Part shown: piece by piece, positions 1 to 34,485 of the stretch | Numbering within the stretch: position 1 is the stretch's first letter | How the letters are laid out: each line of letters begins with the position of its first letter | DNA from: Dimargaris cristalligena | Taxonomy: Eukaryota | Direction: 5' to 3' | DNA length: 34,485 bases | Assembly (NCBI GenBank): GCA_003614675.1 | Contig: ML002390.1 | Span: forward strand, 1-34,485 | The notes under the pieces: model-generated | What the model was told of the DNA's origin: nothing | Seen by the model: the letters and a program-made list of their open reading frames with translations, nothing else | Database searches by the model: none | Position numbers and translations under genes: made by a program

Positions 1-1210
1 ATTACATTTTTATATAAATACCCGTCGGGTATTCTCCTAATAAACAGGCAGTTTTACACCAATTATCAGTTTACCAGTTAGTTATTTCGATCCACCGGTC
101 TTGTTCTATTCCTATCGTCTATTTGGCCCAAGCCCCTTCATTGTGCCTTATCTACCATACATTAGAAGGATCCCTGTGTGATCCCCGGTTGCCCTAGTTG
201 TCCCTATCTGAAGATCAGATAAGAATTGTCCCCGCCGAAGTGCGTGTTTTACTTAGCTAGTTAGTTTTTCCCATTAAACTGAGGCTGCTCCAGTTGGCCC
301 TGATAAGGTTATCGGGCTATATTACCTTGTGGCATTAATTGCAACCACAACAAGGGCCAGGCAATTAGGCATATTGTGGCATCTCCAAGACAACTCACTA
401 TTACATACAAAAGGCCAGCCTCATTTGTGACAATAGTCGCCATCAAGTTTTAATTATTACTTTTCTAATAGCACATCGAATAGCCGAATGTAGAATGTTG
501 TATGAACCAGAGTTGGATTGAAAAATTTGGAATTTTCTTCTAATGAGGTAAAGTGTCTACTGTTAATAAAAGTGAGTCAACTTGGTCAGTCTACGTCAGT
601 AATTTGTACCTTCCCTCCATTAAAACTCTGTGGGGTCTAATAGGGCGAGGTGGCCAGACCGATGTCGGCGTTAATTTGCCGAGCCTGTTGCACCTACTGA
701 AATCTTATTAGCGGCCATTAAATGTATGTAATAACCAGAAAAGTGCGCAATACAGCTGCAAATAGATAAGCGGAAGCGTGCCTGGTTTGGGCTAGCCCAT
801 GTGCCTATCTACCACTTCCACCAGGAATAGAAGTCCAGTGCGTATAGTAGGGACAGTCTAGAAATACCAATATAATATCAAGTGACTCACACAAATTGGA
901 GGAATTCGCTTAGTGGCGTGTAGAGGGGGGGGGGGCGCCTCTTTGCCCGCCCGACTACTATATTTTGGTGGCTAAAGACCTAAAAAATCGGTATCTATTA
1001 CAAAATTGGCTCTGAACCACCCCTTTTAGTACCACACCACACCGCCTTTTACTTCCCTTCCCTTCTCCTAGACCCGGCATTCCTCCCTCCCTTCTTCCAT
1101 TAACCCCGTTTCCACTTACATTGTTCGCTTCCCAACCGGCGTATCCGGTAAACCCGTGCTATCCTCTCACCCCCTTCTCTCACACGCCCATTCACAGCAT
1201 CCCCCCCGTC

Positions 1211-2999
1211 ATGGTCCTCCTAGCACTCCGTCGGCGGCCCCATTTACCGAAAGGGCCGTGCTTCCGCAGGTCCATTCGGGGTGCTACTTGCCTCCCGACC
1301 AGTTCACCAGGACACTACTACAGCACCTCCAAAGCGGCTACTACTAGTCCGACGGGTAAACCCTCCGCCAAATACGCCCTCCTGTTTCCCGGCCAGGGTG
1401 CCCAGTACGTTGGGATGGGTAAGGACCTCCATGCCACGTTCCCGGTGGCCCGGTCGGTCTTTGAAGAAGTGGATGACACCTTGCAATTCAAGCTGTCGAC
1501 CCTCATGTTCGAGGGCAATCAGGTAAGGCCGCGACACACCCTTACTGACTCTCTCTCTCTCTCTCTCTCTCTTGCTTTCTCTCCCAGCTTGCCTTTTCCC
1601 CTCTCGCCTATGTGGCTGGCGCGGTCCCTTGGACATGCGGCTACATCGATGTCCATTCGATCTCCGCGCCCTACGGCTGATATCTCTCACTTATCCAGCT
1701 GGCCCGTGTTCTAACTGATACCATATATCCTTTTTTCCTTTATTACTATATGGGCGTGGGGGCCCCTTTGGGGAATTCGTGGAACATGTGCCTTTTTCCT
1801 TGCCTTTCAATCACATGCCGGCCCACTCCTCCCATATATATATGTATGGGGATATATCCTATAACAGGATGAACTAACTTTGACCCAAAATGCCCAACCG
1901 GCGATTTTGGCCACCTCGATCGCCCTGCTCCGTGTCCTCCAAACTGAATGTGGCTTTAATATAGGCCAGAACGGGGCTTACGCGCTGGGGCATTCTTTGG
2001 GTGAATATACTGCGCTGGTTGCCACGGGGGCTCTGTCACTTTCGGATGCGGTCTCGTTAGTCGTAAGTTTGGGGATACTATTGTATCGAAGGGCTCTAGT
2101 TGGTCGGCCTTTTTTGTTGAATGTGGATTTTCCCAGTATAACTTTAGGGGGTGGCTAGAAACTTAATGCGCTCGTTGATTTCGACGGACCTGGGTATCCA
2201 ACAGCCTAGTATTCGTAAAAAAAATCACCCTGTTTAACACCAACGTATATTTTCTTTCACCTGTAACTTACCCGCCTACCAGCGCCTCCGCGGGTCTGCC
2301 ATGCAAGACATCGTAAACAAACGGGACCAACGGACCGCCATGACCGCCCTCGTGCTCCACGGCACGTCCATCGCCTCTTTGAAAAAACACCTCGATTCGA
2401 TCCAGCCCCAGTTGCCCCCCCATGAAGTAGCCGAACTGGCCAATATCAACTCATCCCGGCAGGTCGTCTTGAGTGGCACACGGCACGGGGTGGGGCTGGC
2501 GGTCCAGGAACTTCAGGCCCGGCGTTTGGCGGCGCGGGCCATTGACTTACCCGTTTCGGCCCCGTTCCACTGTAGTTTGATGCAGCCGGCGGCTACAGTC
2601 ATGGCCCAGGCCTTTGGGCTGGCTCCTAAACCATCACCATCACCACCATCTTCTACGTCTCCATCCTCAACATCGTCGTCGGCACCGTCACCATTACCCG
2701 TATTACCAGTGCCCCCTCTCTTCCATACCCCCATCATTCCTGTCATCAGCAATGTAACGGCCAGACCCGTGGTTGATCCCCAGCAATTTCCCCAACTGCT
2801 AGTCGATCAGGTCACTCGATCGGTACAATGGGCCCCCAGTGTAGAATACTGCCAAACTTCCGGTATCCTCGACTTTATCGCCTTCGGACCCGGCAAAGTA
2901 CTGGCCAATCTGCTCAAACGGGAGCACCCGGAAGATAAAATTAAAAACGTCACCAATGTCACGGATATTCGGGACTTCCGGAACGATATCAACCCATGA
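1211..2999 (+). CDS. MCT1: Malonyl-CoA:acyl carrier protein transacylase (FabD/MCT1, probably mitochondrial FAS II); 3 exons: 1211-1522, 1868-2062, 2283-2999; ~407 aa
   Basis: Spliced translation gives LLFPGQGAQYVGMG, TQNAQPAI, catalytic GHSLGEY, conserved R in (V)RLRGSAMQ, ANINSSRQVVLSG, LPVSAPFH, DQVTRSVQW and FGPGKVL. Both introns are GT-AG and phase 0: 1523-1867 (CAG|GTAAGG...AACAG|GAT) and 2063-2282 (GTC|GTAAGT...ACCAG|CGC). The N-terminus from ATG 1211 is Arg/Ser-rich and lacks acidic residues, resembling a mitochondrial presequence. Confidence 0.95.
1523..1867 (+). other. Spliceosomal intron 1 of MCT1 (345 nt)
   Basis: GTAAGG donor and ACAG acceptor. Removal joins FEGNQ to DELTLTQNAQP in frame. 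Confidence 0.9.
1549..1572. repeat. (CT)12 microsatellite inside MCT1 intron 1
   Basis: Read directly from the sequence. Confidence 0.9.
2063..2282 (+). other. Spliceosomal intron 2 of MCT1 (220 nt)
   Basis: GTAAGT donor, pyrimidine-rich 3' end, CCAG acceptor. Joins AVSLV to RLRGSAMQ in frame. Confidence 0.9.
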
Positions 3000-5719: not shown

Positions 5720-6274
5720 TTAGTTGTACTGTCTGCAGTTAAAATCATCAGCGATGGAATCGTCGATAACGATAGTGTTGGGTTGAAGGAGCTGCTCACG
5801 TAGGATAAAATGGGGGTCCAAGTTGTAATGACAAAGGAACAGGGTGTCACTTTCCATAAAACCGACGCAGTTGATTTCCTGGGGCCACTCAGCAGGGCTT
5901 AGTTGGTAGTGGCCATTGTAGTCACCATACCCACCAGTAGTAGTAGTTGTTGTAGTAATATCCCTGGGCAATTCCTCCACCATCATCATCATCGGTTGAT
6001 GGGCGTCTACGATAGGGAAGGTGTGTGCGGTTTCTACGGGTACCTCCTCACCGTCAACGATGAGGTGGGCGGCCATCCAGCCCACAGTGCATACGACGTT
6101 TTGGGGGGGGTTAAGACCGGCGGCAAAGGTCGTGGCCGCCCGATCGACTACCGGATTGATAAAATTGAACCAGTTCCGGGAGGCTACCTCGTGGGGCTCG
6201 GCGACGTAGAACGGGGCGGGAATGGCGCCAACTACCCAGGGCAAGATGGCGAAGACTAGATGCCAGGGCTTCAT
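5720..6274 (-). CDS. Hypothetical small secreted protein, ~184 aa, 4 Cys, no recognised domain
   Basis: ATG at 6274 within the long ORF 5720-6478 starts a classic signal peptide (MKPWHLVFAILPWVVGA|IPAP). The region upstream is pyrimidine-rich and UTR-like. The protein contains a Thr run and MMMM. Confidence 0.65.
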   Translation of the reverse strand: MKPWHLVFAILPWVVGAIPAPFYVAEPHEVASRNWFNFINPVVDRAATTFAAGLNPPQNVVCTVGWMAAHLIVDGEEVPVETAHTFPIVDAHQPMMMMVEELPRDITTTTTTTGGYGDYNGHYQLSPAEWPQEINCVGFMESDTLFLCHYNLDPHFILREQLLQPNTIVIDDSIADDFNCRQYN

Positions 6275-8641
6275 GGTAAATGATAGTATGTGTATATATA
6301 ATGAACGAGACGAGGGGATAGAACTGGGTGAAATTCGACGGTGGAGAGAGGGAGGAGGGTTAGGCGTGCTATTCTTAATGACAATCGTGAGGGTGAACAG
6401 TCTGAAACGCAAATGTGGCAAGAAAATGGATATATCAAGGCCGATGAAAATAAAACGGTTAAAAGGCAGGTATGGCATGGTATGGTAGAGTCTAGGTGGG
6501 TACGGCCTGCCCGTTATATATATATCCTCACATACGAAGACTCCGAGGCCAGTACACCAGACTGAGTACAGCTACCGAAGGGCTGACCAAAAACCATCCT
6601 CCAAGGTGTGGCGGGGTGCAATACTTTCATGCGAGGTTGCCTACCTATTCCATCGTCCAACCGCCACCCCCTCCCCGGAATACCTTTAATCTAGGCATAA
6701 AATTACACTGGGCTATAATTACCACTATAGCATACATGTAAGACACACCCATAACACTCCTCCGTCATTTTCACTATGGCAATATCGCAAATACACCACA
6801 GCTAAGGTTACGCCATTTAGGTAACCGATAGATATAGCCAATATGCTACGATTTAGAGCACAAGCTGCAACACATCCAATATATAGGGCACCTTGATTTA
6901 AATCTTATCTACCACACTATTCCCCCTGTCACAACAGCTTTTCTCCTTCACTGTTTAGCAATCCAAAAAACCCCCTTCATCCCCAACCGATCCGTAAATA
7001 GCCGATGAACTCTACCCCAATCTGCAGAATACCCACTTTTCATTATATTTTCCTATGTCGTTTATGGTGATGGTGTTGGAGAGGGTGTCTCCCCTATATA
7101 TTATGTGGTACGTTCCTCGTAACACGACGGTTTGGCTCGGATCCCTTTTATTCATTGACACTCACACTATAGGCCCAACTATAGTCAACATTGGCATCAC
7201 TGTGTCATCCGACCGTTTTGACCGGAACAAGCGACTAAATTTTAATATGTATTATATTACCCGCTTTAAAAAAAGGCCTTGGGCCCAATCACTGGTCCAG
7301 GTTATTTTTAAACTCTCCGGCAATTCGCCAGAGAGGGTGTAGCGGGTTGGATCTCGGGGACAGGGAAGGAAAGGAAATACTAATAAAATTATCAACACCC
7401 TCGTTCTAATGCCCCATCCATCCACGTCCCCGCGCCACATCCGATGGGTTACATGGTTTTTTGAATATGAACCGCAGCTTCCGACTCATTTTCGAAACAT
7501 TCGGATGGTAGGATTGGTAAGGCTTCGTTCTGAGTAACAACGGCTCGCTTTTTGATCATGTACCCAACCTCCGTAACATTTTCACCTCCGAAAGGGAAAC
7601 CCTTATATTTATTTTAAACACGTTGAAAAAAAAATTAGAATAATATGGAAACAATAAGCAATCGTCCCTATATACGGAGTAGCCTCAACCGAAAAAGATT
7701 CAATCATCTGATCTCTCAGAAAGAACGACCGAGTTACACCCCACTCCCATTTTTGGATATACTCGACAGGCCGGGTGATTTTAATATGGGATAAGGCGAT
7801 TTATGTTGTTTAGGTCAGTCTATTCAATTCCTACATGTGACAAGGGCCTCATATTTCACCTATAGGGTTCTGGAAAGAAACTCGCCGATTCGTCGGTAGT
7901 TGCCGGTTTGGATATATATTGCATGCCAAATGCCACCGTCAGCAATATCTAATAATAGGGCAGTCTACCCATAACAGGCCACGTCAAACCACACCCAGAT
8001 TAGTCTTAACAAGCGACACCCACTCACACGGTATCAAGGGCAAGTCCCTAAAATGAGAATTATGTACATTTATACATACGCATGGTGAAAATAGGAAGAA
8101 GGGCTACATAAACACGCTAGAATGTATATAATTTTTATTAGCCAAACAACCACTAAAAATAAAAGAAGGGAAAAGGTTGCCAAAATTATGAATTATTTGG
8201 GACAGAGGGGTGGATAAATGATAAGGTCGAATACATAAAAAAATACAGACCAGGAATAACTACTACGGTCTAAAATAACGAAATACAACTAGCAGGGGTA
8301 CAATAAGAGGAGGAAAGAAAGATATGCATTCAGGACGAAAAATACGAAAGTCGCAAATCAGCTATACAGTGCAATTGAAAAGGAAAATAATAATAATAAA
8401 AAAGATGAAATAACAAACTAGGGATGCTGGAAAGAGTGTGGCACTGCGGAGGAATGTGAATTAGACCAGCCTGGCTAATATAAGCAACGCCCAATTAACG
8501 CAGGCAGGAGGCGGCGGTCTGGGGAGATTACATGAGTAGAAATGGGTGGTGTAATAGAGAGGGGATATATATTACTGTATATGCCAAAAGGCACTACTTT
8601 CCTCCATTACATTTCATCGGGTCTATTTTCCCTCTCACTGT

Positions 8642-9661
8642 TTATTTGGAGCCATTACACGTTTGGTTGGCCACCATATGTTCCTTGATCTTTTTCGAGT
8701 AATCCCCATTCGGCCGCGATTCCGAAATATCGTACAGCATCACACCGCCAAATGACGTGTAGGTTTTTTGCAAAAAATCGGTAATCTGCATCAACCGTTC
8801 AGCGGGCACGTACCCCGAGAGGGCCGAATACGTGGACGCGGGGATACCCACGTAAATCTTGACGTTCTTATTGACCGAGTACACGCGGGCCCAGAAGTCC
8901 CACAGGTGGTAATTGAACGACTGGGTACCGAAATTATCCACCCCACAGGGGGAGTTGTAGAACTGGATGAAGAGCATGTCGAACCAGGCCTCATTATAGG
9001 TCTGGGGCATCACCAGGTCGGGGTAATGGCAGAGGGGGGCCGCCGCAATATAATACGCGTGGTTCTTGTCCGTGTCGTAAAGTTGGCGGAGCGTTTTGAT
9101 GAAATCGGTGTAGCCCGCCGCCGCGTTTTTTTCAATGTCCAAATCGACGCCGTCCAGGACCGCATCGCCAAAGGGGCGGGTGTCCCCGGACCCGCCCAGG
9201 AACATGTTCCAGACGTCCGTGGCTACCGTCTGACCCTGTTCCGCCGACGTTAGTTCGTAGCCGCCCTCCTGGCCGCCCAGCGACAGCAGAATGGTCTTGC
9301 CCGCCGCTTGGCACCGCTTGACTTGTTCGCCGACTTTGGGGCACTTGAGCAGCTTGGAGTTGTTAAAAAAATCGAAACAATGGCTAGAGAGGTTGAGAAT
9401 CATGGGGTTGTAGGTGTTGAGGAAAGAAACCACGATGATATCTTCAGAAGGGCTGTTGGTACAATACCAGTCCAGGTCCTGTTCGCCGTCCGTGACGTTG
9501 TGCTTGGCGGCGTACGAATTCTGGCCCCAGTAACTGACCAGGTTGGAATTGCACGATGTATCCAGCGCACTCACGACTGTGGGGGCCAGCTGCAGGGTGG
9601 TGAGGCCAACGAAGCTCAGGAGTAGGCCCGTGGAATAGGCGAGAAGGGAACGGTTAAACAT
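8642..9661 (-). CDS. Secreted GH18 chitinase, class III / subgroup B (hevamine/Cts1-like catalytic domain only), ~339 aa, intronless
   Basis: Signal peptide, then YWGQNS, CQAAGKTILLSLGG, RPFGDAVLDGVDLDIE (DxxDxDxE intact), FIQFYN and FGGVMLYD. No Ser/Thr linker or chitin-binding module. Confidence 0.95.
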   Translation of the reverse strand: MFNRSLLAYSTGLLLSFVGLTTLQLAPTVVSALDTSCNSNLVSYWGQNSYAAKHNVTDGEQDLDWYCTNSPSEDIIVVSFLNTYNPMILNLSSHCFDFFNNSKLLKCPKVGEQVKRCQAAGKTILLSLGGQEGGYELTSAEQGQTVATDVWNMFLGGSGDTRPFGDAVLDGVDLDIEKNAAAGYTDFIKTLRQLYDTDKNHAYYIAAAPLCHYPDLVMPQTYNEAWFDMLFIQFYNSPCGVDNFGTQSFNYHLWDFWARVYSVNKNVKIYVGIPASTYSALSGYVPAERLMQITDFLQKTYTSFGGVMLYDISESRPNGDYSKKIKEHMVANQTCNGSK

Positions 9662-9798
9662 GGCGAGTATGTGTCTCAGAGCAAGAAAAAAAAACAATAA
9701 ATAAAACTAAACTAAGGGGAGAATATGCGGAAGGAGCAGACAGGGAGAATAAAGAAGTGATAGGGGGTAGCGTAGTGGTCTCTTTTAAGGCGAGGCGA

Positions 9799-16436: not shown

Positions 16437-17234
16437 CTATCCGGCGAAATACGGACTGTCCATTTGGACTGGAGCAGGCGGTGGGGGCATATAATCGAGG
16501 TACTCGTGGCCCGGTTGACCGCGACACATCATCTCCACGCGGAACTCGGCCTCCGCCCATAGCCCCGCCCCAATGGCGTTAGTGAACATAAACAACACAT
16601 TAAATAATGGAATCATTTCCAGCGCAAACGCCACGCTGCCAAATGATATATAACTGGATCGATTAAGATACACCCAGTGCCGGGTTTGGTGAAACGACAT
16701 GCCGCGGATTTCAACCAAATAGTGAATCATATAGCCCCAGGACAGCATATAGCCGTTAATAGCGAGCACTATAATACTACCCACAATCACAATGGCGTGA
16801 ATCGGAATCGTTAGAATTAAAATGAGCACTTGGCACAGCCCGAACAGGAGTCCTGCGCTTGCGGCCCGCATGATTGTATTCCGCAGGTGTAATTCCGCCG
16901 GTTTCAATAGGGCATGTTCCAAGCCTCGCAACCGAAGTACGTCGTCGAACAGTAAATCTTGCAATAGGGGCATGAGAATGAGTCCCAAAATCACCACCGC
17001 CAGGGCACTTTCAATGAGCATAAGGATCACCGCCACGGTCCAGGCCAAACCCGCGGGACAGTGGGCCCGAATGAGCGCATGGGCCGTGGGACCAATGAGG
17101 AAACTAAACCCTACGAGCGAGGCGATGGCTATGATGAGCATTACTAACAGGCCGTAGAGGCAGCGACACCATAGTGACGGGTGGGTTAGGAAGAAGAGCA
17201 TGCCCTGAAAAGGAAATGTCCACGGTCTGACCAT
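16437..17234 (-). CDS. EI24/CysZ-like multi-pass membrane protein (fungal Lds/Rrt8-like family), ~265 aa, intronless
   Basis: N-terminal W/Y-x-F-P-F-x-G-x-x-F-F-L-x-H-P-x-L-W pattern (WTFPFQGMLFFLTHPSLW), then QDLLFDDVL, HYLVEIRGM and YISFGSVAFALEMIPLFNVLFMFTNAIGAGLWA, with several hydrophobic helices. These patterns are typical of EI24-domain proteins. First in-frame ATG is 17234. Confidence 0.8.
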   Translation of the reverse strand: MVRPWTFPFQGMLFFLTHPSLWCRCLYGLLVMLIIAIASLVGFSFLIGPTAHALIRAHCPAGLAWTVAVILMLIESALAVVILGLILMPLLQDLLFDDVLRLRGLEHALLKPAELHLRNTIMRAASAGLLFGLCQVLILILTIPIHAIVIVGSIIVLAINGYMLSWGYMIHYLVEIRGMSFHQTRHWVYLNRSSYISFGSVAFALEMIPLFNVLFMFTNAIGAGLWAEAEFRVEMMCRGQPGHEYLDYMPPPPAPVQMDSPYFAG

Positions 17235-18629
17235 CTTTAGGCGTAGCAATATAGGGTTTTCACCACTGCACGCACTGTTTTCTACAGAAACGACCAAAGA
17301 GTAGGAAGGCGGGGTGGGGAGAAAGGAAGCAGAAAGGGCAAAAGTAATAGAAATAGACCGAGGGCGTACAGGAAAAAGACTTAAGGGACTACTTGCAGGT
17401 TGAAATATATATATATATACATATATAATTTCAAAGACATTGGCCCAATAATAGTAAAGCGTTGTGGAGTAGGGGCTTATACTCCAGTTATTAAATACAC
17501 CAAATTGGGTGTGTCCTGTTAACGTGGCCGGCTATGAGGGATATACGTAGCCACCAATAAGGGCCAATAATAAATATAAAAATAATTTACACTCAGTAAC
17601 TTAGGGTGACATTGTCCGTGGATCGTTGTATCCTAGCGATCAATGCCAAGTATTCAACTGTATGGTTTGGTCAACGTACTTTACTTGGGGTTGGGGAATA
17701 TACTACGCTGATTAATTCACCAAGCTTAGCCGTATAAAGGAGTCGCAAAGGAACTCTGAGTTGATCAGTGGTGGGTGGACTTTACATTAATGAAGGCAGC
17801 TGTAGAATGGCCCAAATTCACCTCAAATGCACCACCATGTACAGTGTCTGTGGCTTTCATTGCCGGACGATTAGGTGTGTCACCCTCCGACGCCATCCGG
17901 TCGAGTAAGTTGGCTAGAGTAGGACACAAGCCTCCCTCCCTATGGAGGAAAACAAACTAGAGAAGGGTGTATACGAATATCCGACTAAAAGAAAGGGAAG
18001 TATATACTAATATTCAGTGAGACCAGCCGATGGTCCCGATACGATTTCGGAATATTCATGATGGAAACTGATAGGCTAAACGTAGACTTTATCCTCCGCT
18101 GCCCTTATTGTCAAGCCCGTGCCTAATTGTTGTTCCTCTTTCCGGTCGCCGGGTTCATGGGAATGGGCGATTATATTTTTATATTTTTATATACAGAGAG
18201 CTATGTAGCCTTTCCAATGAAGTAAAGCCCAGCGAACGTTCCCGCCAAGCATTCATTCATTGTTAATTGAAAGTCCCCTAGCTTAAATTGGGAGTGCTCT
18301 ACAATGAACAATAAGATGAACCATCATAAATAAAATAATCTGAGAAAGATAGAGAGACGAACGGAAAATTTACATGTGCTCTCTAATCCTGTAGGTATCT
18401 AGAGCTAGCATGCTATACCATAATGCAAACAGCAAGTTAAACCAATATAGAAAAATCCTCATGCGACTGTGGTATGTATAAGGTCACATTGTCGTAAAAA
18501 TAGAGCCATATCGCGGGTCGGCATCCCCAGAACTACTGAAGAAATTTATGTGCTAGCCAGTCATTAAACGCCAAAATAATAATAGTAATAATAATAAAAT
18601 AAAAAACACTGTTCCGTGAAACCGGTAGA

Positions 18630-19739
18630 TTAATTCAAGCGACAGAGGGCCGACACCGGTTTACGAGTTACCGTTTCGCTCCCTATATCTACTCCCCCGA
18701 GCGACCGCTGACTCCCACTAGGGCCAAAAGCGTGCCGGGCCAGCGTATTAGCGGCATCCGCCAACCCCGCGGCGTTATCCATTAGACCATCCCAGGTCCA
18801 TTTAGTGCTCGTTCCGCCTTCGCTAGCCTCCGGGGATGACATTCCCGGGGCCATTGCCGTTGCGGTCGTCGACCGGGACGAAGCCATCGAATGTGAAGTC
18901 GACGCCGATGTACCCCCAGATGTTCCTGAGCCACTAGTATGATTCGACGACTCTACCTCCCCCGCGGTAGTAGTAGTAGTAGTATCCGTCGACTGCCGTT
19001 TCTGCCCCGCCCGGGCCCGTTCGGCATCACTGGGGGGTCTACCAAAGACACACTGCGACACCGGCACAATATCCAGACCCCGGTCCTGGGCCAGGTCAAT
19101 CTGCTTCTGGAGGGTACCGATACTACTATAATACGTATCGTGTTGCAGGACAATAGCGCCCCGGCTTTGGGGGTCAATGGCCTTGATAATATTATCCAAG
19201 TCCTTTTCGACTTCGGCACTGGCCGCGGACCCATCCCCTATATCGACGGCGTAGCGCCAGTCGTTGGAATCGTCGGACCACTGAATGGGTTGTAAGTCCA
19301 ACTCGGCCGCGACCGCGAGGGCGGTATCGCTGTAACTGCCAAAGGGGAATCGCATTAGGCGGGGGGTGGGGCAACCGGCCGCCACAATGGCGTCGGACGT
19401 CCGTTGGAGCTGGTCCCGAATGCCCGCGCTGTCGAGCGTGGCCAGGTCGGGATGATCCCAGGTGTGAATGCCCATATCGTGGCCCGCCTTACAAATGGCC
19501 CGGGTCAGTTCGGGGTATTGGGCAACCTTGTAACCCAGCGCAAAGAAGGTGGCGCGTAGTCCGGCGTCCGCGAGCGCTTGGGACACCTGGGGCGTTACGT
19601 TGGGTTCGGGTCCATCATCGAAAGTCATGGCGTATTGGCCGACCGGGCAGCTATAGTGTAGGGCCCGGGTTAGGCCAAAGTGGGCGAGGACTAGGGGCAG
19701 CACCGCCAAACGAACCATCGTGGGTCGAGTTAGAATCAT
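18630..19739 (-). CDS. Secreted chitin deacetylase / polysaccharide deacetylase (CE4, NodB domain) with Ser/Thr-rich C-terminal tail, ~369 aa (alternative start 19718)
   Basis: Signal peptide (MVRLAVLPLVLAHFGLTRA) and all five CE4 motifs: TFDDGP, HTWDHPDL, RFPFG, DSNDW, IVLQHD. Flanking Cys (YSCP...SQCV) are typical of fungal CDAs. Confidence 0.95.
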   Translation of the reverse strand: MILTRPTMVRLAVLPLVLAHFGLTRALHYSCPVGQYAMTFDDGPEPNVTPQVSQALADAGLRATFFALGYKVAQYPELTRAICKAGHDMGIHTWDHPDLATLDSAGIRDQLQRTSDAIVAAGCPTPRLMRFPFGSYSDTALAVAAELDLQPIQWSDDSNDWRYAVDIGDGSAASAEVEKDLDNIIKAIDPQSRGAIVLQHDTYYSSIGTLQKQIDLAQDRGLDIVPVSQCVFGRPPSDAERARAGQKRQSTDTTTTTTAGEVESSNHTSGSGTSGGTSASTSHSMASSRSTTATAMAPGMSSPEASEGGTSTKWTWDGLMDNAAGLADAANTLARHAFGPSGSQRSLGGVDIGSETVTRKPVSALCRLN

Positions 19740-22594
19740 ATTGAATAGAGTACGTCGGCGAGGTGGCCAAAAAAACAACAAAAAGATGCGAAATTTGTAG
19801 AGAGGGGTTTCGGAGCTGGGCTAGGACAGTTGCATTGAGGAGCTAGCAGTACTTTCAAAAACAAAATCGAAGCCGATATATTGGGTAGTGGATAGCGTAT
19901 GTTAAAGCTGCGAGGGTGGGCAAAGTGGATTTTTGATTAAATGATAGAAGTCGCCACACGTTTAGAGGAACAGACTGGCCAGTGATTTATGGCTATGGAT
20001 AGTAGATAACTAAAAACGAATAGGTTCTGTAGGCTTAAGAGCCAGCGGTCGATAGTCATAGGAATATAAGGTGTCAAGAGATAATGATTGTCAATGTGAA
20101 GAAATATGCTACGCTTATATACCCGTAGGTCAAGCTATATCGACGGGGAAGGAGTAGTAGCGATACACGTTTTTTTTATATATACAGCAGTAGAAGAACG
20201 TGTTTTACAGTATTGTAGCTTATAGGCCTAGTCTAGCTAAATTGACCGAAGTGGCTAAATCAAGGCCCAATGTATACAGATGTAACATTTTCGGGCGGGA
20301 GAAGGCAAGCGGGTGTAAGCGACGTGAGATGTACGAAGGCTGGACGACCGGTGCGCAGTAATAGGGGAACGGAACACACGCGCGTTTAACACTTGCCGCC
20401 TAGCCAGCCGGCCGCGCACCACTCGAACGTACTACCCTTGTCTACCGGTATAGGTGTCACTGGGCGTGGCTAGGTAGGGGTGGTCTCTGGCCACAGCAGT
20501 AGCCGGTGTACTACCCACCGCCCAACTAGGTCTAGCGTGGCCACCCAGTCTGTCAACGGTACCATTTCCCTGCTAAGGCCCTTAGTGGCCGGTTGCACTG
20601 TAGGACCTATTCGGCCGGTGAAGGGAAACATGGGAGAAGGATATGGAGGGGTCAGACGATTACCCACCCGTATAATAGTTTAGGCGGCCGTTGCTGTTCG
20701 CAGTCGTTTTTTTTTTGGAACATGTACTACGTTTAGCCGGACGTTGGGGAGCAGTAGTGTCTGTGGGTATGTATTTAACGTGGCGCCAATCCAAAGGCGA
20801 AAGATATGCAGGCTCTCTGATAGTACGACGTTGGTGTAGCGTTGGAGGGGGTGCTTTTTTATATATAGATAATTCAAAATTATTATACCGCCTGAATAAA
20901 TTGGCCATTTGAATAATGGGAATCCGGCTTGTACTGTAGACCATAATCGATCAGCCCGCGCCGAAAGAATAGTGGTCGTGGCGGACAAGGTCAGGGCAGG
21001 ATAGACAGCACAGGCTGTGTTGTTGTTCTCGTTCTTTCTCCGTTTTCCTTCTAAAGAGCTTTTGGAAGGGTGGTCTTCGATAAGTAACACCAGTATTACG
21101 GCATGGCGAACACAGGTATCACCATGTACCACGACCATGCATTTTTCCCATCGTCGCACAGGTTGGCCTAAAATATACAAAAAATCTCCCACCGGCGTCA
21201 ATGCCCATGTATGCCGTCGGGGACCTCATATATTGGGTGTATTTCCAAGCGCATTATAGGAGGAATTGGTTATGAAGGATTAAACTGAAATAAGCCTGCT
21301 GGAGATTGGGGTATCGAGAAACATATAGTTACCAGCCGTTGATTATAAAACAATCGATAGTTTATAAAGGGCGGTATGGGCTAGATGCGTGAAATGATAT
21401 GAATTATCTTTCGAGTTTAGGCTGTGGGTGGCGGGGGCGCTTTCTCAAGGGATGATAGGTGGGTGAGGTGTCGTTGAAGAAGTAACGAATATCGAGGTAC
21501 CAACTACCACTCGCTTAAAGTATCCCGTCGAAAAGAGTATTACTATACCTCATCATTATTTTAATTACTAATAGTAATCAACCAGTCCAGATTGCTTTAA
21601 GTGAGACTTATTGTGGTCCAATGTTTAACAAACCCTGAGTGATATTGTAAGAGCAAGTCCAAGACAATACCAAAATAGTCGTTGTCCAGAAATAATACAC
21701 TACACCGACGCCCTATGGCAAGTGCGAGGTGTGTCTTATAAAGTAAAACCTGAAATAGGTAGTTGGGTAATATAAATATCGCGGCAGCCAATCGAAATGG
21801 TGCATAAACACTATGCGGAATGATTAGGTTATTCTAAGCTGGACCTCGTATAGCCTCACCGACTAGTACACCCGTCTTCAATATACATACGGGGGCAGAA
21901 ATTCCAATCATATTTAAAATTTTTATGCCTAATATTGGAGATACTTAAAGCCGATGCCTCTTAGGCTGCAGTGCTATATTGTCCGCCTTACTAACAGGTT
22001 GCGGGAAGTCAATGGCTAATTGGGGTCTAATCACTCTCCAACTCCTCGTCTCCCGGCTACCCCATCTATTTAATATATATCCCGGTGTATTCTTCCTTGG
22101 CCTAGGCTATCCTAGCGTTAACTAAGGTGTTGGCCTAAGCCATCAGGGTAATGCTAATCCAATATCTAGTGAAGGAACTGCTATCTTTATGGCCCACCCA
22201 ATAGTTACTTTACTCTCTTTACATCCCAGCCGTCCGAAATGCAGTAGCGTATATCAACGTATCCCGGTGCTGTCCCCTCCACGCACTAGCTTAATAGACA
22301 TAATAACACCCCCAATTATTACTCAGGTCCCCCCTGCTCTAACAAATAGTGTCCCGTATCCTGTATCTGACGAATTGAAGTGTCTTAAATTTTATGGTGG
22401 ATAATTTATACGGCTATTAAGTAATGATTGTTGATATTGGTCGAAGTAAAAGACATCTCAATCACCTGTATTTATAGTACGATAACCTAACCTCGAGAAG
22501 TATAGGGTATTAATGGCCGGATTCCTAGCTCCAACAGGTAACCTTCGGTATGGTTTGTGTATTCGGCGATGAATGCTCTTGTTCCAGGAGAGTC

Positions 22595-24349
22595 CTACAC
22601 ACTGCACGGCTTGGCCAACGATGGCTTAGGTGGTGCCTCCGCATAGATTCGGTGATTGATCCGAGGGTGCCAAGTGTAGGTGACCAGGAAGGTAACAAAC
22701 GCGAACAATGATATGACGAAGAAGACGAAATGGAAATCAAACGGGAAACCATGGCCGCTAGCGAGGGACCAGCTCCAGACGGCGCCGGCCAATAAAGGTC
22801 CAATCGAGCGCCCTAGTGAACCGGCCGTCTGGCCTACGCCATTGACGGTGCCCAGCGCCTCTCGTTTAGGTACCGAATTATTCACGAGAATGTTGGAGCT
22901 CGTGAATGATAGGGTGTTACTAATGACTCGGAGAATGAGGGCCAAGATAAGTATCACCCACGTGATACCTCGAATGGACTCGGAAGTCGGTGGAGTATCG
23001 GCAGGGGGCATCAGGAAAGTTTCGTGGTTGGAAAAGGTGGGGCATAAAGATAGCGAGGGATGGGTTCGGCGGCCCGACTCGAGGGCTGCAATAAAGGGGA
23101 ATGCGAGTGCGAGCACGGTGTAGAGGAGCATTCCGTAGCGAAAGCAGAGCAAGCTGCCCAAATAGCGCTGGATCTTAGGATACACGGTAATTTGGACGTA
23201 AAGGACAGCAATGCCCGCGGCCGACAGGGTAAACCCGATGGTTTGGCTGTTAAGCCCAATGCCACCCAGGTCGGGGTGGGTGGCTGACCAGACCGGGTAC
23301 AGTTCGTCGAACATAATAGCTACCAAGGAGAGACCGAAATAACCCGCAATGCACAAGAGAGAGTCCCGGTTAAAGGCAATCGCAAGGGCTGCCCAGGCTC
23401 CGAGCTGTTTGGTTGGTGGCTCCGCAATATCTTTGGACAGCGCTGGTGATATGGCCGCCGTACGCTCCGTATTACGGGTGGCTCCCTCAGTGGGTGGTTG
23501 AGTATCAGTAGCCAGTACCAACTTCTGAGGCATGGGCCCTGATATGGTGCTATAATAGATGGATCCCGTCGACTGGGAGGAAGCACCTGGGATTCCACTG
23601 GGTAAGAGACTTGACCGCTCGTTCGAATTATCCGTCAACGACGGCGATTGTAGATTCTCGACGGAGGCGGTGCGGGATGAAGTGAAAGACGGTGCCGCAG
23701 GCAGTGTCCGATGGAGGGTTTCTTCGAGGAAGAAAAAGCACATGGTCCAGCTGCAGGCACTGAGGGCGGCGCAGAAGAGACAGGGGAGGAGGTAGGGGTA
23801 TTGGGCCAACAATACACTGTCACCGAACAGACTGGGGTAGTTGGCCACCGGATTGGCCAATAACCCGCCAATCATGGGGCCAATGATACTGCCCAGGTTC
23901 CAGCACAGTGGTAACAAACTAAACCCCTGGGCCTGGTTGGTTTCGTCGGTGATTTCGGCCATGATGGTTTTGGCGGTGCACGAGTTTCCGTTGAGGGCCC
24001 CCCATAACACCCGGGCCACCACGGCCCACGCCAGGGACTGGCTCAAACCAAACATCAGGGAGCTCACAATGGTGCCCATGACCCCCAGGAGCAGGATCGG
24101 CCGGCGGCCAATTCGGTCGGATAGGAAACCCCACAGCATACCTGTGGCTAGTTGGGCCACCGAAAAGGCCGAGGCCACGATGCCCACGTAGAACCCAATG
24201 GCTTTGGGGTCATCGGTGATGTGGAAGTCGCGCACCATGAAATAGACAAAGGGGAATAGGACGGTACAGTTGATGGGTTCGCTGAGTTGGATGAGCAGCA
24301 GTACAGTGACTTGCCACCACGGTAGCGGTGTTATGCGGGTGGTCGACAT
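22595..24349 (-). CDS. Major facilitator superfamily transporter, ZIFL/YCR023C-like (drug:H+ antiporter-related), ~584 aa, intronless
   Basis: TPLPWWQV N-terminus, EPINCTVLFPFVYFMVRDF, MFS motif A (GFLSDRIGRRP), GALNGN, EITDETNQAQGFS, GSIIGPMIGGLLANP, YPYLLPC, LGTVNG and RSIGP. About 12 TM segments with a long low-complexity central loop. Confidence 0.93.
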   Translation of the reverse strand: MSTTRITPLPWWQVTVLLLIQLSEPINCTVLFPFVYFMVRDFHITDDPKAIGFYVGIVASAFSVAQLATGMLWGFLSDRIGRRPILLLGVMGTIVSSLMFGLSQSLAWAVVARVLWGALNGNSCTAKTIMAEITDETNQAQGFSLLPLCWNLGSIIGPMIGGLLANPVANYPSLFGDSVLLAQYPYLLPCLFCAALSACSWTMCFFFLEETLHRTLPAAPSFTSSRTASVENLQSPSLTDNSNERSSLLPSGIPGASSQSTGSIYYSTISGPMPQKLVLATDTQPPTEGATRNTERTAAISPALSKDIAEPPTKQLGAWAALAIAFNRDSLLCIAGYFGLSLVAIMFDELYPVWSATHPDLGGIGLNSQTIGFTLSAAGIAVLYVQITVYPKIQRYLGSLLCFRYGMLLYTVLALAFPFIAALESGRRTHPSLSLCPTFSNHETFLMPPADTPPTSESIRGITWVILILALILRVISNTLSFTSSNILVNNSVPKREALGTVNGVGQTAGSLGRSIGPLLAGAVWSWSLASGHGFPFDFHFVFFVISLFAFVTFLVTYTWHPRINHRIYAEAPPKPSLAKPCSV

Positions 24350-27300
24350 GTTGAAGGGGGATGTGAATAGAATACAATGAATAGGGGGTAGTCGGTTTCG
24401 GTAATACAGAACGCAGAAGTGCGGCCACGATGGGTTGTCGCGGGGGACTTGGCCAGATATGCGTCGGGGGTAAAGTGAACTCAAACGTAGTAAAAAGAAA
24501 TGCGATTATGGAACGAAAAAGAAAAATAGAGACCGGTCGCGGGCTTAAAACGGGTCAGAAACTATACAGAACGAGATGTTTTAAATCCAACACTCCGATA
24601 ATCAATCTAGCGGGAGACTGGCCCTGCGAAACTCCTAGTAAATAAACGTAGATTTTTAAAATATATTAGGTGGGCACCGGCGAGCCTTATATACGACTAT
24701 AGATAGTCGCTATCGCAGACAGCCCTGGGAAAGTATAGTAGGGGCTACGAAAACGCTCGACAAAGGCCTGGCCCAGAGGATTAGCTTTAGCCGCATGACA
24801 ATGACCAGAAAGAAATAGAACCAGATTCATAGTGACTCCTCTCTAGTGGCCATCCCTTGCCTCAACCCCTATGACCGATGGCGACCATTATCCGCCGATT
24901 GGCTAGTTCTCTCAACAAGTATACCTCCCAGTTTTATTATCGCCGCAGCCTTTGGATATCTATCCTTCTACCTTTAGCATAAGCATGCACATGTATGTGG
25001 CACAGGAGTAGACCCGACCTGCTTGGTGAAATCTGGCTGAGTCATAGAGGAGGGTCTGGCTTGGATACGCCAGGAGACAAAAACTCCGCCCTCCTCTACT
25101 TCAGTGCCGACCACCACAGCCACCCATTCAGACTGAATCCCGGTAGAATTTGAGCTAATTATGGGTTCAGGCCATAATATTTGGTTCATATTTTACCTTA
25201 CGGGCGTTTTGCCTGGCTGTTCCTTTTTTTTTCTATAAGAAATATTCAAATCAGATTATTCGGCAAAGCCCAATTGTTTTTATTTTCTCGTTGCAGTGTA
25301 ATAAACAAACATGGCAATGTGTTAATTCATCGCCTGGGAGATTCCCGATTAAATAGGTAAACCGTCGGAATAAAATATGAGGGGCAACTCACTCAATGGA
25401 ACCATCCCCCGTGGTCACCATAGCCTCCTTTCGATACGGATATTATTTTAGCCTCAGTGGGTCCCACTGCACAGGACCAGCCAAGCCAGGCGGTTAAAAA
25501 TACCCTTTCTCGCGTCCTCGCCGGCCTACTGGGCTATTGTCACCACCACGAATACTGCAGCATACTCAGTCACACCACCGCCACGGAATGATTAATTAGC
25601 TCAAATTGTGGAGGGAGGAGGGTGGGCCCGGCTCCCATTGTTGGCTTAGCCCGAATACGTCGGTGGAAATTACTGGCTGTCTATACGGTGGTTTATAGAC
25701 ATGTCTCTCGGCACATCCATTTCCTGAAATGTTTCAGGGTGTGGGAGAGGATTTTATTTAAATGGGTGGTCTGTTGCACTATAATAGGCGACTCTTTATT
25801 CATTTTTAGAATAGGGAATGATTTCTTCCATCATATAATTTACATTTTTCTCTAACAGAAGATGTGTATTTATACTAGGCAGTCGAAATCTGCAGTATGT
25901 TGCTCGGCCACCAAAAGTCCTCACTAATTCATTTATATAAAAGTGACTATAGTAATAAGCCTCAATTGGTCCCTACTGTATTCTATTGCGAAAAAAAATA
26001 TCTTTAAAATGGCAGTTAGTTGCTTTAGGTTTATGGCCATTACTCTTATGCAATCTAAGGTCAATCCCCTTATTTCACCTTTCTGGGCTAAAATTAAGGA
26101 CCGGGCCAAAGCATAATACTGTCCCGGATCCCTGTGTTATTGTCGCCGTTTCCCACCCGCCGCCGTGTTTCGCATTCCCCTCGGCATTGGTCCTGTGTCC
26201 CCAGTCAGTCCTGCACATGCCCCCACCCCAACAACGCGCGGCCCTAAATCCACGTACTGAATTGAAAGTCACAATATACAGTCATCATCGTTTGGCTAAC
26301 ACGTATACTCGCTTAAATGGGGCAAGAAACAGTCTTGTTGGTAACTGCATATTCTGTTGCGAATGTCGCTATTCATTGGTGAGTCAAGTTCACAGATATT
26401 AAAGAGTGACAATAGTATATTATTGCCCAATCGTCTGGCCACCTGACCAAGACCGACTTGTTCGGCCAATACAGGCGCTGGGCCCTTGAGGAGGGTATGT
26501 CGATACCCGATATGTTTTTTTACTGTGCTATCACTGGCCGGCCTATTTTCTCGGCTATGAGAATACCCCTTGACTACTCTGCATATTTCGCTATACCTAT
26601 ATTGCATGTGGTGATTAGTAATCAATGGGGTCCGGGTATCTAGCAGCCTCGCCTTTCATAACCACGTGCAACCTATGCTGCTTTTTAAAATAACAATATT
26701 TGACCCCAAAATTTTGAATTCTCCGAATCTATTAGGTCTGGGTAACAACTCTAGTACACTTATACCGATAGCTCACCTAAAGTTGGCTATTCTATAGAGC
26801 TGGGATTGTCTTTTACGTTACAATAGACAAGACCATGGGATGCTCTAAAGATATTTTATGCTGGGGGGGGCAGGGGTAAAATATAATAGAAATAAGAGTG
26901 GTTGGCCAAAGTCGAAATTCACGTTATTAAAGGCCAGGTGGTTATTGGGGGTTTTGGAACCCCTGGCCATTAATTGTTATTGCATTGGGCTCCGCGGCTC
27001 AGTTGTTTAACTGACTTGCTTAGAACTCTCATGAGCCACTCGGATGGTCGCGTATGTCGTTAACCTTGACCTCGACAGGGGGATCCTCCTTAAAAAAATA
27101 TGTACTATTATTGCTCATTTAGGATATGCTCGTATTTAGAATGGGTCAGCGGATCCCCTCTTAATTAGTATAGTGGGGCCGATACTAAATTTGACCTAAA
27201 CTCTACATTTTGAACACCCTATATGAGGGAGTTGGATTAAGAACCAACAAAAAATAAATAAATTGGTAGAACAGAGCCATACAACTATATATTGCCTTGA

Positions 27301-30547: not shown

Positions 30548-33046
30548 ATGGCTCAAGACCACCCTGGCTCCATCAGCTTTAGTCCAGAGGGCGGAAAGGA
30601 TGTTCAGCCAGTGCCCGACATTTCTCTTCCCCCACCTACTTTACCACCGCCACCCATGGGTGCAGGGGAAGCCTCCAAAATCCCATCACCTAGAGTGCTG
30701 CCCCCCAGCGGGTCCCGATGTTCCAGCGGCCCTTTATCCAAAGTTTCTGAAAAACCACCGCCCTCCCCCGGGCCCACCCCAAGCCCTGATGCTCCGCGGC
30801 CCAGATATTCAGCGTTTTTTCGCCGAAGTCGAAGTCGAAGCCAGGCCCGGCCCTCCTTCTCTCCGGAGAAACTACCCATTGAAAAAGCCCCCCCGGTATC
30901 CTTCCTATCCCTCTTTCGCTTTGCCACCGTCTTCGACTGGCTGTTAATGATGATTGGTACCATATGTGCCATGGCCGTGGGAGCCTCCCAGCCGCTCATG
31001 GCCATCATCTTTGGGAGTATCCTACAGAATTTGGGGTCGTATACCTACAACTACCAAACCGACCCCGATTTGGCGAACGCCCAGTTGGAACAGACCATCC
31101 ACGACATGTTAAAGTGGGTTGGTATCCTGGCAGGGGCCACCTTTACCGCCGCTTTTGTCCAGATCTTCATGTGGTCCTACGCCGCCGAACGCCAGTGCCG
31201 GAATATCCGTGAACTTTACTACGCCTCTATTCTACGCCAGGAGATTGCCTGGTTTGACACGGTATCCACCGGCGACTTGACGTCGCGCATATCAGGGGAC
31301 GTGAATATGCTTCAGGAGGGCATAGGTTCCAAATTAAGCATCATCGTCCAGGATTGTACCTGCTTTGTCACCGGATTCATCGTGGCCTTCGTCAAGGGCT
31401 GGCGCCTAGCTCTTGTTCTCATGTCGTCCCTGCCCCTCCTCATTCTGTGCGGGACAATCATGTCCAAGTTAGTGGCAGCACGCTCCACCCAGGGCCAGGA
31501 TAGTTACGCCGGGGCCGGTGCCGTGGCCGAGGAAGTCATTTCGGGGATCCGTACCGTGATGGCGTTTGGCGGTCAGGAGAGGGAGGCCGAACGCTACGAG
31601 GGTAAAGTGCGGGGAGCCTTGCGCCAGGGGATCCGCAACGCTTATATTTCCGGTCTGGGGGTCGGCTGCATGATGCTACTAGTGTTCCTCACTTACGCCC
31701 TGGGCTTCTGGTACGCCATCAAACTGACAGCGGAGGGTACCCTCCAGGGCGACCAAGCCATTGCAGTGTTTTTCGCTCTGGTGCTCGGAGCCACAGCCCT
31801 CGGTCGATCAACCCCCTCGTTTTCCGCCCTTGCCAATGCCCGGGGGGCCGCAGGTCAAGTATTTCAATTAATCGCGCGGGAACGTCTGATCGACCCGCTA
31901 GCCAATACCGGGCTGACCTTGGATCGGGTCGAGGGACGCTGCGAATTCCGGGCTGTCCAGTTCAACTACCCGTCCCGCCCTGACGTGCCTATTCTTAAGG
32001 GTCTGACGCTCGATGTGGACCCCGGTCAGACGGTGGCCCTCGTGGGGCCCTCAGGGTCCGGAAAGAGTACCATTGTGGCGCTATTGGAGCGGTTCTACGA
32101 CCCCTCCGCGGGCGCGATTTTCCTCGACAGAGTCGATATCAAGGATATCAACGTGCGCTCCCTACGGAGCCACATCGGAGTGGTCAGCCAGGAGCCCGTA
32201 CTGTTTGGTGAGACTATTCGGCAGAATGTGCTCTGGGGGACCCTGGATGACCCCACTGGACCACCCGTGACGGATTCCCAGATTGAGAAGGCCTGTCGGG
32301 ACGCCAACGCCTGGGATTTTATTCAGAATCTGCCCCAGGGCCTGGACTCGCCCGTCGGCGAGCGGGGCACCTTTCTATCCGGCGGTCAAAAGCAACGTAT
32401 CGCGATCGCCCGGGCCATCATCCGAAACCCGCGCATCCTCCTCCTCGACGAGGCCACAAGTGCTCTCGACTCCAAGGCCGAGCGCCTGGTGCAGGACGCG
32501 TTGGATCGGGTTGCCCAGAACCGTACGACCATTGTGGTGGCCCACCGGTTATCCACTATTCGCAATGTCGATAAGATTGTCGTTATGCAGCAAGGCGAGG
32601 TCGTAGAAGTGGGCACTCATAACGCCCTGCTGGCCCGGGACGGTACCTACGCTCAACTGGTACGTAGCCAGGCCATCAAAAAGCGTGAAGATGGGGTAGA
32701 CGATACTTTTTTGGAACCGGACGATGATATCGACGAGGAAGATGACCCCTACGACACCCAGAGGACCGCCTTAGCCGTGGTGGGTGCAGCTCTCAAAAAC
32801 AACACCTCTTTCGCCGGCTCGGACGATGTCGTGACAGTGCAAAATTTATCAGTAGCTGAGAAAGTCCTGCGTAAACCACTGAGCCATAACTGTATCTCCA
32901 AGCCCCGACCTGGCCGAAAGAGTTGGAGGTGGGGCCGTAAACGCGACAGAAATGGGGAAGCGAAGATTGAAGAACAGTTGGCGCAGGCCAAGCGAGCTCG
33001 GCTGGCCAAGAAGCCCATGCCCCAAGGCAGTCCCAAAAACATTTAA
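30548..33046 (+). CDS. MDR1: ABCB/MDR1-type P-glycoprotein, N-terminal half (TMD1-NBD1-linker); the frame ends at TAA 33044-33046 inside an anomalous segment
   Basis: VSFLSLFRFA, ILRQEIAWFD, GWRLALV, Walker A GPSGSGKS, Q-loop VSQEP, signature LSGGQKQRIAIARA, Walker B ILLLDEATSALD, H-loop AHRLST, followed by an acidic/basic linker. Confidence 0.93.
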   Translation: MAQDHPGSISFSPEGGKDVQPVPDISLPPPTLPPPPMGAGEASKIPSPRVLPPSGSRCSSGPLSKVSEKPPPSPGPTPSPDAPRPRYSAFFRRSRSRSQARPSFSPEKLPIEKAPPVSFLSLFRFATVFDWLLMMIGTICAMAVGASQPLMAIIFGSILQNLGSYTYNYQTDPDLANAQLEQTIHDMLKWVGILAGATFTAAFVQIFMWSYAAERQCRNIRELYYASILRQEIAWFDTVSTGDLTSRISGDVNMLQEGIGSKLSIIVQDCTCFVTGFIVAFVKGWRLALVLMSSLPLLILCGTIMSKLVAARSTQGQDSYAGAGAVAEEVISGIRTVMAFGGQEREAERYEGKVRGALRQGIRNAYISGLGVGCMMLLVFLTYALGFWYAIKLTAEGTLQGDQAIAVFFALVLGATALGRSTPSFSALANARGAAGQVFQLIARERLIDPLANTGLTLDRVEGRCEFRAVQFNYPSRPDVPILKGLTLDVDPGQTVALVGPSGSGKSTIVALLERFYDPSAGAIFLDRVDIKDINVRSLRSHIGVVSQEPVLFGETIRQNVLWGTLDDPTGPPVTDSQIEKACRDANAWDFIQNLPQGLDSPVGERGTFLSGGQKQRIAIARAIIRNPRILLLDEATSALDSKAERLVQDALDRVAQNRTTIVVAHRLSTIRNVDKIVVMQQGEVVEVGTHNALLARDGTYAQLVRSQAIKKREDGVDDTFLEPDDDIDEEDDPYDTQRTALAVVGAALKNNTSFAGSDDVVTVQNLSVAEKVLRKPLSHNCISKPRPGRKSWRWGRKRDRNGEAKIEEQLAQAKRARLAKKPMPQGSPKNI

Positions 33047-33107
33047 TCAGATAGTATAATGTCATTTAGTATTAATGAACATTTTAGATTAAAAATGATC
33101 AGGGCCT
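33023..33107. other. AT-rich, imperfectly palindromic ~85-nt segment interrupting the ABCB gene where the elbow helix and TM7 are expected
   Basis: About 25 of 85 nt are G/C by hand count, against clearly GC-richer flanking codons. It contains an in-frame stop, the frame changes across it, and the conserved TM7 sequence is missing. Confidence 0.8.
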
Positions 33108-34485
33108 GCACTATTATCCCGTATCATGGCCGTATTCAGCAATGTGGCCAACCCCGTCCAAATGCGCACGGACGGCGATTTTTATTCGCTGATGTTCGTC
33201 GTTCTCGCCATTGTAGCCTTTATAGCGGCCACCGGCCGCGTCGGCCTATTTGCCATGAGCGGTGAACGGCTCACCTACCGCTTACGCCTGGCTAGTTTCC
33301 GCGCCATTATCTACCAGGATGCGGCCTTTTTTGACGATCGGGCTAACGGCACGGGCACGCTATGTTCAAAATTAGCCACTGAGTCCGAACGAGTAAAAAC
33401 ATTATGCGGCCGAGTGATCGGTACGCTACTGCAGAATTCGAGTACGTTTCTGGTGGGCGTTACTTTGGCCTTTGTCAACGGCTGGCAGCTGGCACTGGTG
33501 GTTATGGCATGCACGCCCATCCCCGCCCTCGGTAGTATTATGCAGATGAAGCGCCTGGAGGGCTTCGACGGCAAGACCAAAAAGGCCTACGACCGGGCCG
33601 CCCAAACCGCCTCCGAAACGGTCGCCAATCTGCGAACGGTGGCCACACTCGGCAGGGAACAGATGTTTATCGACATGTTTAAACGCTCGAATGACCAACC
33701 CCATTACGACTCCCTGCGGGGGTTCCTCTTCGATTCCTTCGGGAGTGCCCTGGCCCAGTCCCAAATCTTCATCATGGTGATCATCTCCTTTTACTATGGC
33801 TCGCGGTTGGTCCTGTGGGGCATCTATGACTTGGCGGATGTACTCCAGGTCATTTACGCCATCATCTTCGCTGCACAGAGTATTGCCCAGGCCGGCCAGC
33901 AGGTCAGCGATTTGCCCAAGGCTAAAGTAGCTGCGTTGAGCATCTTTGAGATTATGGACCGGGTGCCAGCGATTGATGCCCGTCAAGACGACGGCCAGGC
34001 CCGGCCACATATTGAGGGCTTCGTCGATGCCCACGAGGTAAATTTCAGCTATCCCTCAAGTCCGGACACGCCGATCCTGCAGCACATTAACCTCACGGCT
34101 CACCCCGGACAAACAATCGCCTTGGTGGGTAATTCCGGGTCGGGTAAGAGCACGCTGATTGCCCTGGCCCAGCGTCTATACGATGTCACCGCGGGCGCGG
34201 TGAGTATCGAACACGTGGACACTCGAGAATGGCACCTTGCGAACCTGCGCTCCCACATGGCCCTCGTGGGCCAGGAACCCGTCCTGTTCGACCTGTCCAT
34301 CCGAGACAATATCCGTTACGGCAGACCCCAGGCTACCGACGCAGAAATCGAACAGGCCGCCCGGTCCGCTAATATCCACGAGTTCATTGAATCCCTGCCC
34401 GACGGGTACCTCACCACCGTGGGGGAGCGTGGGGGACAGCTATCGGGGGGCCAGAAGCAAAGATTGGCCATTGCTCGGGCTCTCA
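33108..34485 (+). CDS. MDR1: ABCB/MDR1-type P-glycoprotein, C-terminal half (TM8-TM12 and NBD2, partial, runs off the window), in a different frame from the first half
   Basis: Hand translation from 33108 gives ALLSRIMAVFSN...SGERLTYRLRLASFRAIIYQDAAFFDD...GWQLALV...ANLRTVA..., Walker A GNSGSGKS, VGQEPVLF, and ERGGQLSGGQKQRLAIARAL at the window end. It is absent from the ORF track because it has no stop within the window. Confidence 0.92.

Follow-up and report, generated by a model that had tools for sequence, protein, structure and literature searches.

A break in a full-size ABCB transporter gene of Dimargaris cristalligena, where an inverted copy of the gene's own 3' flank replaces the TM7 coding sequence, is very probably an amplification or assembly artefact

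The break that splits a full-size ABCB (P-glycoprotein/MDR1-type) transporter gene in this contig is very probably an artefact of amplification or assembly, the best candidate being a chimera with two junctions, formed in amplification or library preparation and then fixed in the assembly. We consider it highly likely that the contig holds a chimeric molecule and that the gene itself, from a fungus of the Dimargaritales, codes an unremarkable full-size ABCB transporter and is intact. An assembly or amplification chimera had been one of three unranked readings in the original prediction, and it is now the best supported. The window, that is, the whole stretch of DNA analyzed here, is the entire contig C183 (34,485 nt) of assembly G000 (30.65 Mb, 2220 contigs). 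The features of the locus, in window positions, are as follows.

30548..33022, forward strand: 5' part of the full-size ABCB transporter gene, with N-terminal extension, TMD1, NBD1 and linker (Pfam ABC_membrane and ABC_tran)
33017..33022, forward strand: left overlap, 6 nt common to the gene and the inverted donor; gene-side contigs match to 33022, donor-side contigs from 33017
33023..33116, reverse strand: the patch, a 94-nt inverted copy of the gene's own 3' non-coding flank, replacing 108 nt that code the elbow helix and TM7
33044..33046, forward strand: TAA ending the first frame, within the patch (open-frame translation)
33117..33123, forward strand: right overlap, about 7 nt common to donor and gene; donor pieces stop at 33123, gene pieces restart at 33117
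33117..34485, forward strand: 3' part of the same ABCB gene, TM8-12 and most of NBD2, equal to residues 721-1176 of the intact protein P0001

Open-frame translation bears out the prediction that the TAA breaks the first frame and that a second frame continues. The first frame begins at ATG 30548 and ends after 832 aa at 33044-33046; the second spans 33099-34484, has an in-frame ATG at 33126 and runs off the contig end. According to Pfam, the second frame contains both ABC_membrane and ABC_tran, without the first 18 profile positions: its ABC_membrane match begins at profile position 19 of 274, compared with position 1 for the first half, in agreement with the claim that TM7 is missing. The contig ends inside NBD2, about 90 codons short of the stop (91 and 90 residues lie beyond that point in the homologues P0003 and P0004, respectively), and contigs of three sequencing runs (X2-X4) carry the gene onward past 34485. 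At the other end of the gene, positions 30548-30900 code an N-terminal extension that is long (about 115 residues) and rich in proline; the extensions of P0003 and P0004 are of similar length and other sequence.

The low GC content described for 33023-33107 (~29%) was measured at 29.4%, or 29.8% over 33023-33116, compared with 54-58% in the surrounding coding DNA. This AT-richness is normal for non-coding DNA of the window. Stretches of 94 nt that are as AT-rich as the patch or more make up 56 of the 3440 taken from the window (step 10), and the upstream flank of the transporter gene has 34% GC.

P0001, a protein of 1250 aa encoded on another contig of 21,335 nt, represents the intact form of the gene. 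No second 100% match to P0001 was found in G000 among the 37 of 58 candidates scored, suggesting that it comes from another assembly. The window translation equals P0001 at 100% over residues 1-684 (30971-33022) and 721-1176, a comparison that leaves out the first 141 window codons, which lie upstream of the P0001 start. Within the compared part, this identity upholds the earlier statement that the gene carries no other lesion. Between the two blocks, P0001 has 36 extra residues (685-720), the elbow helix and TM7, with a hydropathy peak of 1.86. PF00664 and PF00005 each match P0001 in two stretches, giving the full-size ABCB architecture, and its best matches are fungal and animal ABCB1/MDR proteins.

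A protein search in which 8000 candidates were scored listed 120 homologues, 115 of which align with the TM7 core in their second half. Those failing the TM7 test are P0002, P0044, P0048, P0068 and P0077. The closest named relatives among the matches listed come from Dimargaris (P0003 and P0004, labelled Dimargaris cristalligena), Tieghemiomyces and Dispira. P0002 is this contig's own gene model (1128 aa), plausible-looking but mismatched to intact P0001: its intron bridges the patch and deletes about 50 linker residues together with TM7. Because it removes linker residues that P0001 keeps, the intron is probably a gene finder's repair. Separately, P0007 (a Dispira simplex relative) is without about 22 residues over TM8, probably through a gap in its own gene model or assembly.

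Five DNA runs with this stretch are listed, of which four were compared (X1-X4, covering two samples and two studies) and X5, a third sample, was left out. In each of the four runs, a contig runs on from 33022 to 33117 with 108 different letters (36 codons) in between, and these match the 36 P0001 residues of the elbow helix and TM7. This is the continuous TM7-coding sequence that had been named beforehand as evidence against a real break; its contig word depth in X2 is 240.5. Neither of the window's two junctions was seen in the contigs of X1-X4. The material compared was contigs rather than reads, and since contigs drop rare variants, the comparison establishes the presence of the intact form and not the absence of the other.

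The original prediction was right that coding DNA had been replaced and not merely interrupted, and its sizes need revision. The replacing segment is 94 nt (33023-33116) instead of 85 nt, and the loss, put at ~33 aa or ~100 nt, is exactly 36 codons or 108 nt, leaving a net loss of 14 nt and a shifted frame. The residues 'ALL' at 33108-33116, previously taken as resumed ABCB sequence, belong to the patch and resemble the true residues by chance.

The patch had been thought foreign-looking; it is the locus's own 3' flank. It also occurs in X1-X4, on a different contig from the intact gene junction, and matches over 33017-33123 with one differing letter in X1, X2 and X3 and over 33053-33123 in X4. 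This single mismatch between patch and donor lies somewhere in 33053-33123, as bracketed by X4 record 16, and may fall in the right overlap. In X3 record 12, window positions 33017-33123 are found on the plus strand at 346-452 and positions 33773-34485 on the minus strand at 863-1575. Similarly, X1 record 2 carries patch and gene on opposite strands, and in both records the NBD2 motif is offset from the patch by 357 nt. In window coordinates, the projected position of the inverted donor is 34896-35002, with the 94-nt copied part at about 34903-34996. This places it about 410-520 nt past the window end, about 135-245 nt behind the stop codon (from the C-terminal length of P0003 and P0004) and 1.8-2.0 kb from the junctions (about 1.98 kb from the left and about 1.78 kb from the right). 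The donor pieces continue into other flanks at both ends, and the flank letters are the same in both studies.

The overlaps at the junctions exceed chance. For the 6-nt left overlap (33017-33022), the chance of at least 6 shared letters is 0.00028, as estimated from 400,000 random point pairs; for the 7-nt right overlap (33117-33123), it is 0.000075 if the overlap is exact and 0.0014 with one mismatch (400,000 draws). Overlaps beyond chance suggest that both junctions were primed on short matches. In the course of events that we propose, which takes the observed intact form, donor, orientation, distance and overlaps as given, the growing strand would have left the gene template at 33022 and primed, through the 6 shared nt, on the opposite strand about 1.98 kb further downstream. 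It would then have run backwards through 94 nt of the gene's 3' flank. A second priming, through the overlap of about 7 nt, would have brought it back to the gene at 33117, about 1.78 kb further on in its new direction. We infer that the switches occurred in the tube, either while the DNA was amplified by strand displacement or while the library was prepared. Assemblers collapse parallel paths when these are of similar length, and the chimeric path may have been kept here because it was near the true length (94 versus 108 nt).

An artefact is favored over an event in the cell on several grounds. All four runs compared, from two studies, contain the intact form, as does P0001. A copy-in within a cell should not have removed the donor, yet no match to the donor in its context turned up in G000. 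No further change has accumulated in either gene half, and the geometry is of the shape published for chimeras of multiple displacement amplification (MDA). Other observations count against an artefact. Two-junction chimeras are rare, and 1.8-2.0 kb is far from the 250-300 nt at which their distances peak (PMC4595205). The return falls within 14 nt of the length-keeping point, which is natural for a replication fork in a cell, and there is one mismatch between patch and donor. The switch geometry alone cannot separate tube from cell.

Comparison of the patch with the same assembly, as the original prediction had proposed, returned one match in G000, the patch itself; the window gave just 10-14-nt chance matches, and the other loci compared gave none. 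G000, a fragmented assembly of 2220 contigs in which this contig stops before the donor, yielded no match to the donor in its own context and 0 matches to a 20-nt donor flank; given the fragmentation, neither result proves absence. The TM7 peptide and the gene's C-terminus had no 100% match outside C183 among the 37 of 58 candidates scored. Such a match would have been expected from trans-splicing or a reciprocal swap, with TM7 or the C-terminus on another G000 contig; the lack of one among those 37 candidates does not show absence. The assembly looks damaged at this place, as the contig stops about 410 nt before the donor. The contig break before the donor, together with the donor and C-terminus not being found in G000, would be expected if the assembler had led the gene through the donor and dropped the true pieces. 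Other marks of chimerism were not seen among the 25 longest of 35 inverted pairs and the 20 largest of 28 direct families in the window, all of them simple repeats or short chance pairs.

It is possible but unlikely that the junctions are real and record a very recent FoSTeS/MMBIR-type switch-and-return in the sequenced cell, nucleus or isolate, with TM7 replaced and a null allele as the outcome. The geometry is the same as in the four-point model (PMC5453318), the return lies near the departure point, and both junctions have overlaps. Against this, the four-point paper treats short-range events only, the gene is intact in the four runs and in P0001, and the donor, which a real mutation should have left in its context, is the very piece before which the contig breaks. 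The paralogue on contig C702 of G000 (L022, minus strand) also bears on the matter. It is 99.9% identical over 1204 residues to P0004, labelled Dimargaris cristalligena, in keeping with this species as the source, and has a frame change near residue 205, where a T run near C702:14412 is one base short. This is either a sequencing error or a second real lesion, and it may reflect an assembly prone to errors or a relaxation of selection. A real mutation would suit selection being relaxed on these pumps in the isolate, but a one-base shortfall in a T run is also a common sequencing error. If the junctions and the C702 frameshift were both genuine, this mycoparasitic fungus would include an isolate or nucleus that had lost both close MDR1-type pumps, kept by others of the species; we regard this combination as quite improbable.

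A pure assembler mis-join, through a wrong gap path or bad scaffolding and with no chimeric molecule behind it, is very improbable. The contig end is close, the donor and the C-terminus were not found in G000 (37 of 58 candidates scored for the C-terminus), and word depth over this gene is low and patchy in the runs of sample S1, all of which a mis-join would accommodate. However, the 6-7-nt overlaps are too long for chance and the window contains no N. The words on which assemblers join are far longer than 6-7 nt.

A functional arrangement, whether a GC-AG intron at 33027-33102, a fission giving an 832-aa half transporter plus a second chain with 5 TMs, or an insertion of MITE or organellar DNA, is scarcely credible: the GC and AG ends are present, the P0002 model splices past the patch and ATG 33126 is in frame, but TM7 is coded unbroken in the genomic DNA of all four runs compared and kept in 115 of the 120 listed homologues, and the patch is single-copy in G000, with an insignificant stem and a nuclear donor beside the gene. 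The original prediction had doubted the intron, and indeed its removal leaves out the TM7 that P0001 and nearly all homologues have. Fission, which had been offered as a further reading, conflicts with the continuous TM7 coding in the runs. The suggested MITE or transposon footprint would not be expected to occur in one copy, with a chance-level stem and with 108 nt lost rather than a target duplicated, and organellar filler is at odds with a donor in the same contig as the nuclear gene's 3' end (X3 record 12). Further, the nested hairpin described in the patch, as a DNA fold or as structured RNA, is at chance level. Folding gives z = -0.83 as RNA, with 40 of 200 shuffles as good, and z = -1.14 as DNA (23 of 200), and the longest exact stem, of 7 nt, is equalled in 99 of 300 shuffles. 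No RNA datasets with this stretch are listed, and literature on this genus and ABC transporters consists, among the matches listed, of general MDR papers only.

Pfam matches identify the following further genes in the window.

22595-24505, reverse strand: MFS transporter
18630-19820, reverse strand: polysaccharide (chitin) deacetylase
16437-17531, reverse strand: EI24/CysZ-family protein
1016-1714, forward strand: weak acyltransferase match

Frames of 147-354 aa at 8642-9706, 5720-6571 and 20680-21225 (reverse strand) and at 2238-2999 and 25959-26402 (forward strand) have no Pfam match; they may be exons of intron-bearing genes or lineage-specific proteins. Elsewhere in G000, at C1039:7826-9437 (L006, L011), an ABC half-transporter-like gene lies in two open frames of 581 and 275 aa, with its membrane and nucleotide-binding parts apart, through an intron or another frameshift.

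The locus is a warning that a two-junction chimera of almost unchanged length can hide in a contig without an N or a repeat. Such a chimera mimics a foreign insertion or a gene fission, and a gene model can mask the lesion, as P0002 does in leaving out TM7 and some of the linker. Genes that look broken in this assembly, and any counts of lost genes drawn from it, need comparison with other runs. True junctions would make a clean example, resolved to the base pair, of a template switch over kilobases that disabled a fungal efflux pump; mutations of this kind are already known.

The gene resembles the fungal full-size ABCB transporters P0003-P0010 (P0005-P0010 being from Tieghemiomyces and Dispira) in its TMD-NBD-linker-TMD-NBD order, with 56-69% identity over the searched part. 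The intact form, P0001, has TM7 and shows no difference from them; only this contig's copy is without TM7.

In the four-point template switch, a fragment is replaced by the reverse complement of another, which is modelled for short-range events only (Loytynoja and Goldman 2017, PMC5453318). The break shares with this model, and with FoSTeS/MMBIR, the switch-and-return by which 108 nt are replaced by a 94-nt reverse complement (PMC5453318). Unlike in the short-range events of that model, the donor here is 1.8-2.0 kb away, and the contigs compared include no second carrier.

Chimeras from MDA are the other published counterpart. They are described as >85% inverted, with a deletion between the segments, mostly <10 kb apart and primed on 2-21 nt (Lasken and Stockwell 2007, PMC1855051). 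Their overlaps are reported to peak at 6 nt and to be mostly 5-8 nt, and their distances to span 0-5 kb, most often 250-300 nt (Tu et al. 2015, PMC4595205). In the latter study, single chimeras outnumber two-level ones by about two orders of magnitude (PMC4595205). The present case differs from these descriptions in having two consecutive switches, a length that is nearly kept and a distance of 1.8-2.0 kb, well above the 250-300 nt peak; an MDA origin would presuppose that the source DNA had been amplified. As in the inverted MDA chimeras of both studies, the segments are inverted, <10 kb apart and joined at overlaps of 6 and about 7 nt (PMC1855051, PMC4595205), and each switch likewise reaches the other strand at a point in front of the growing end.
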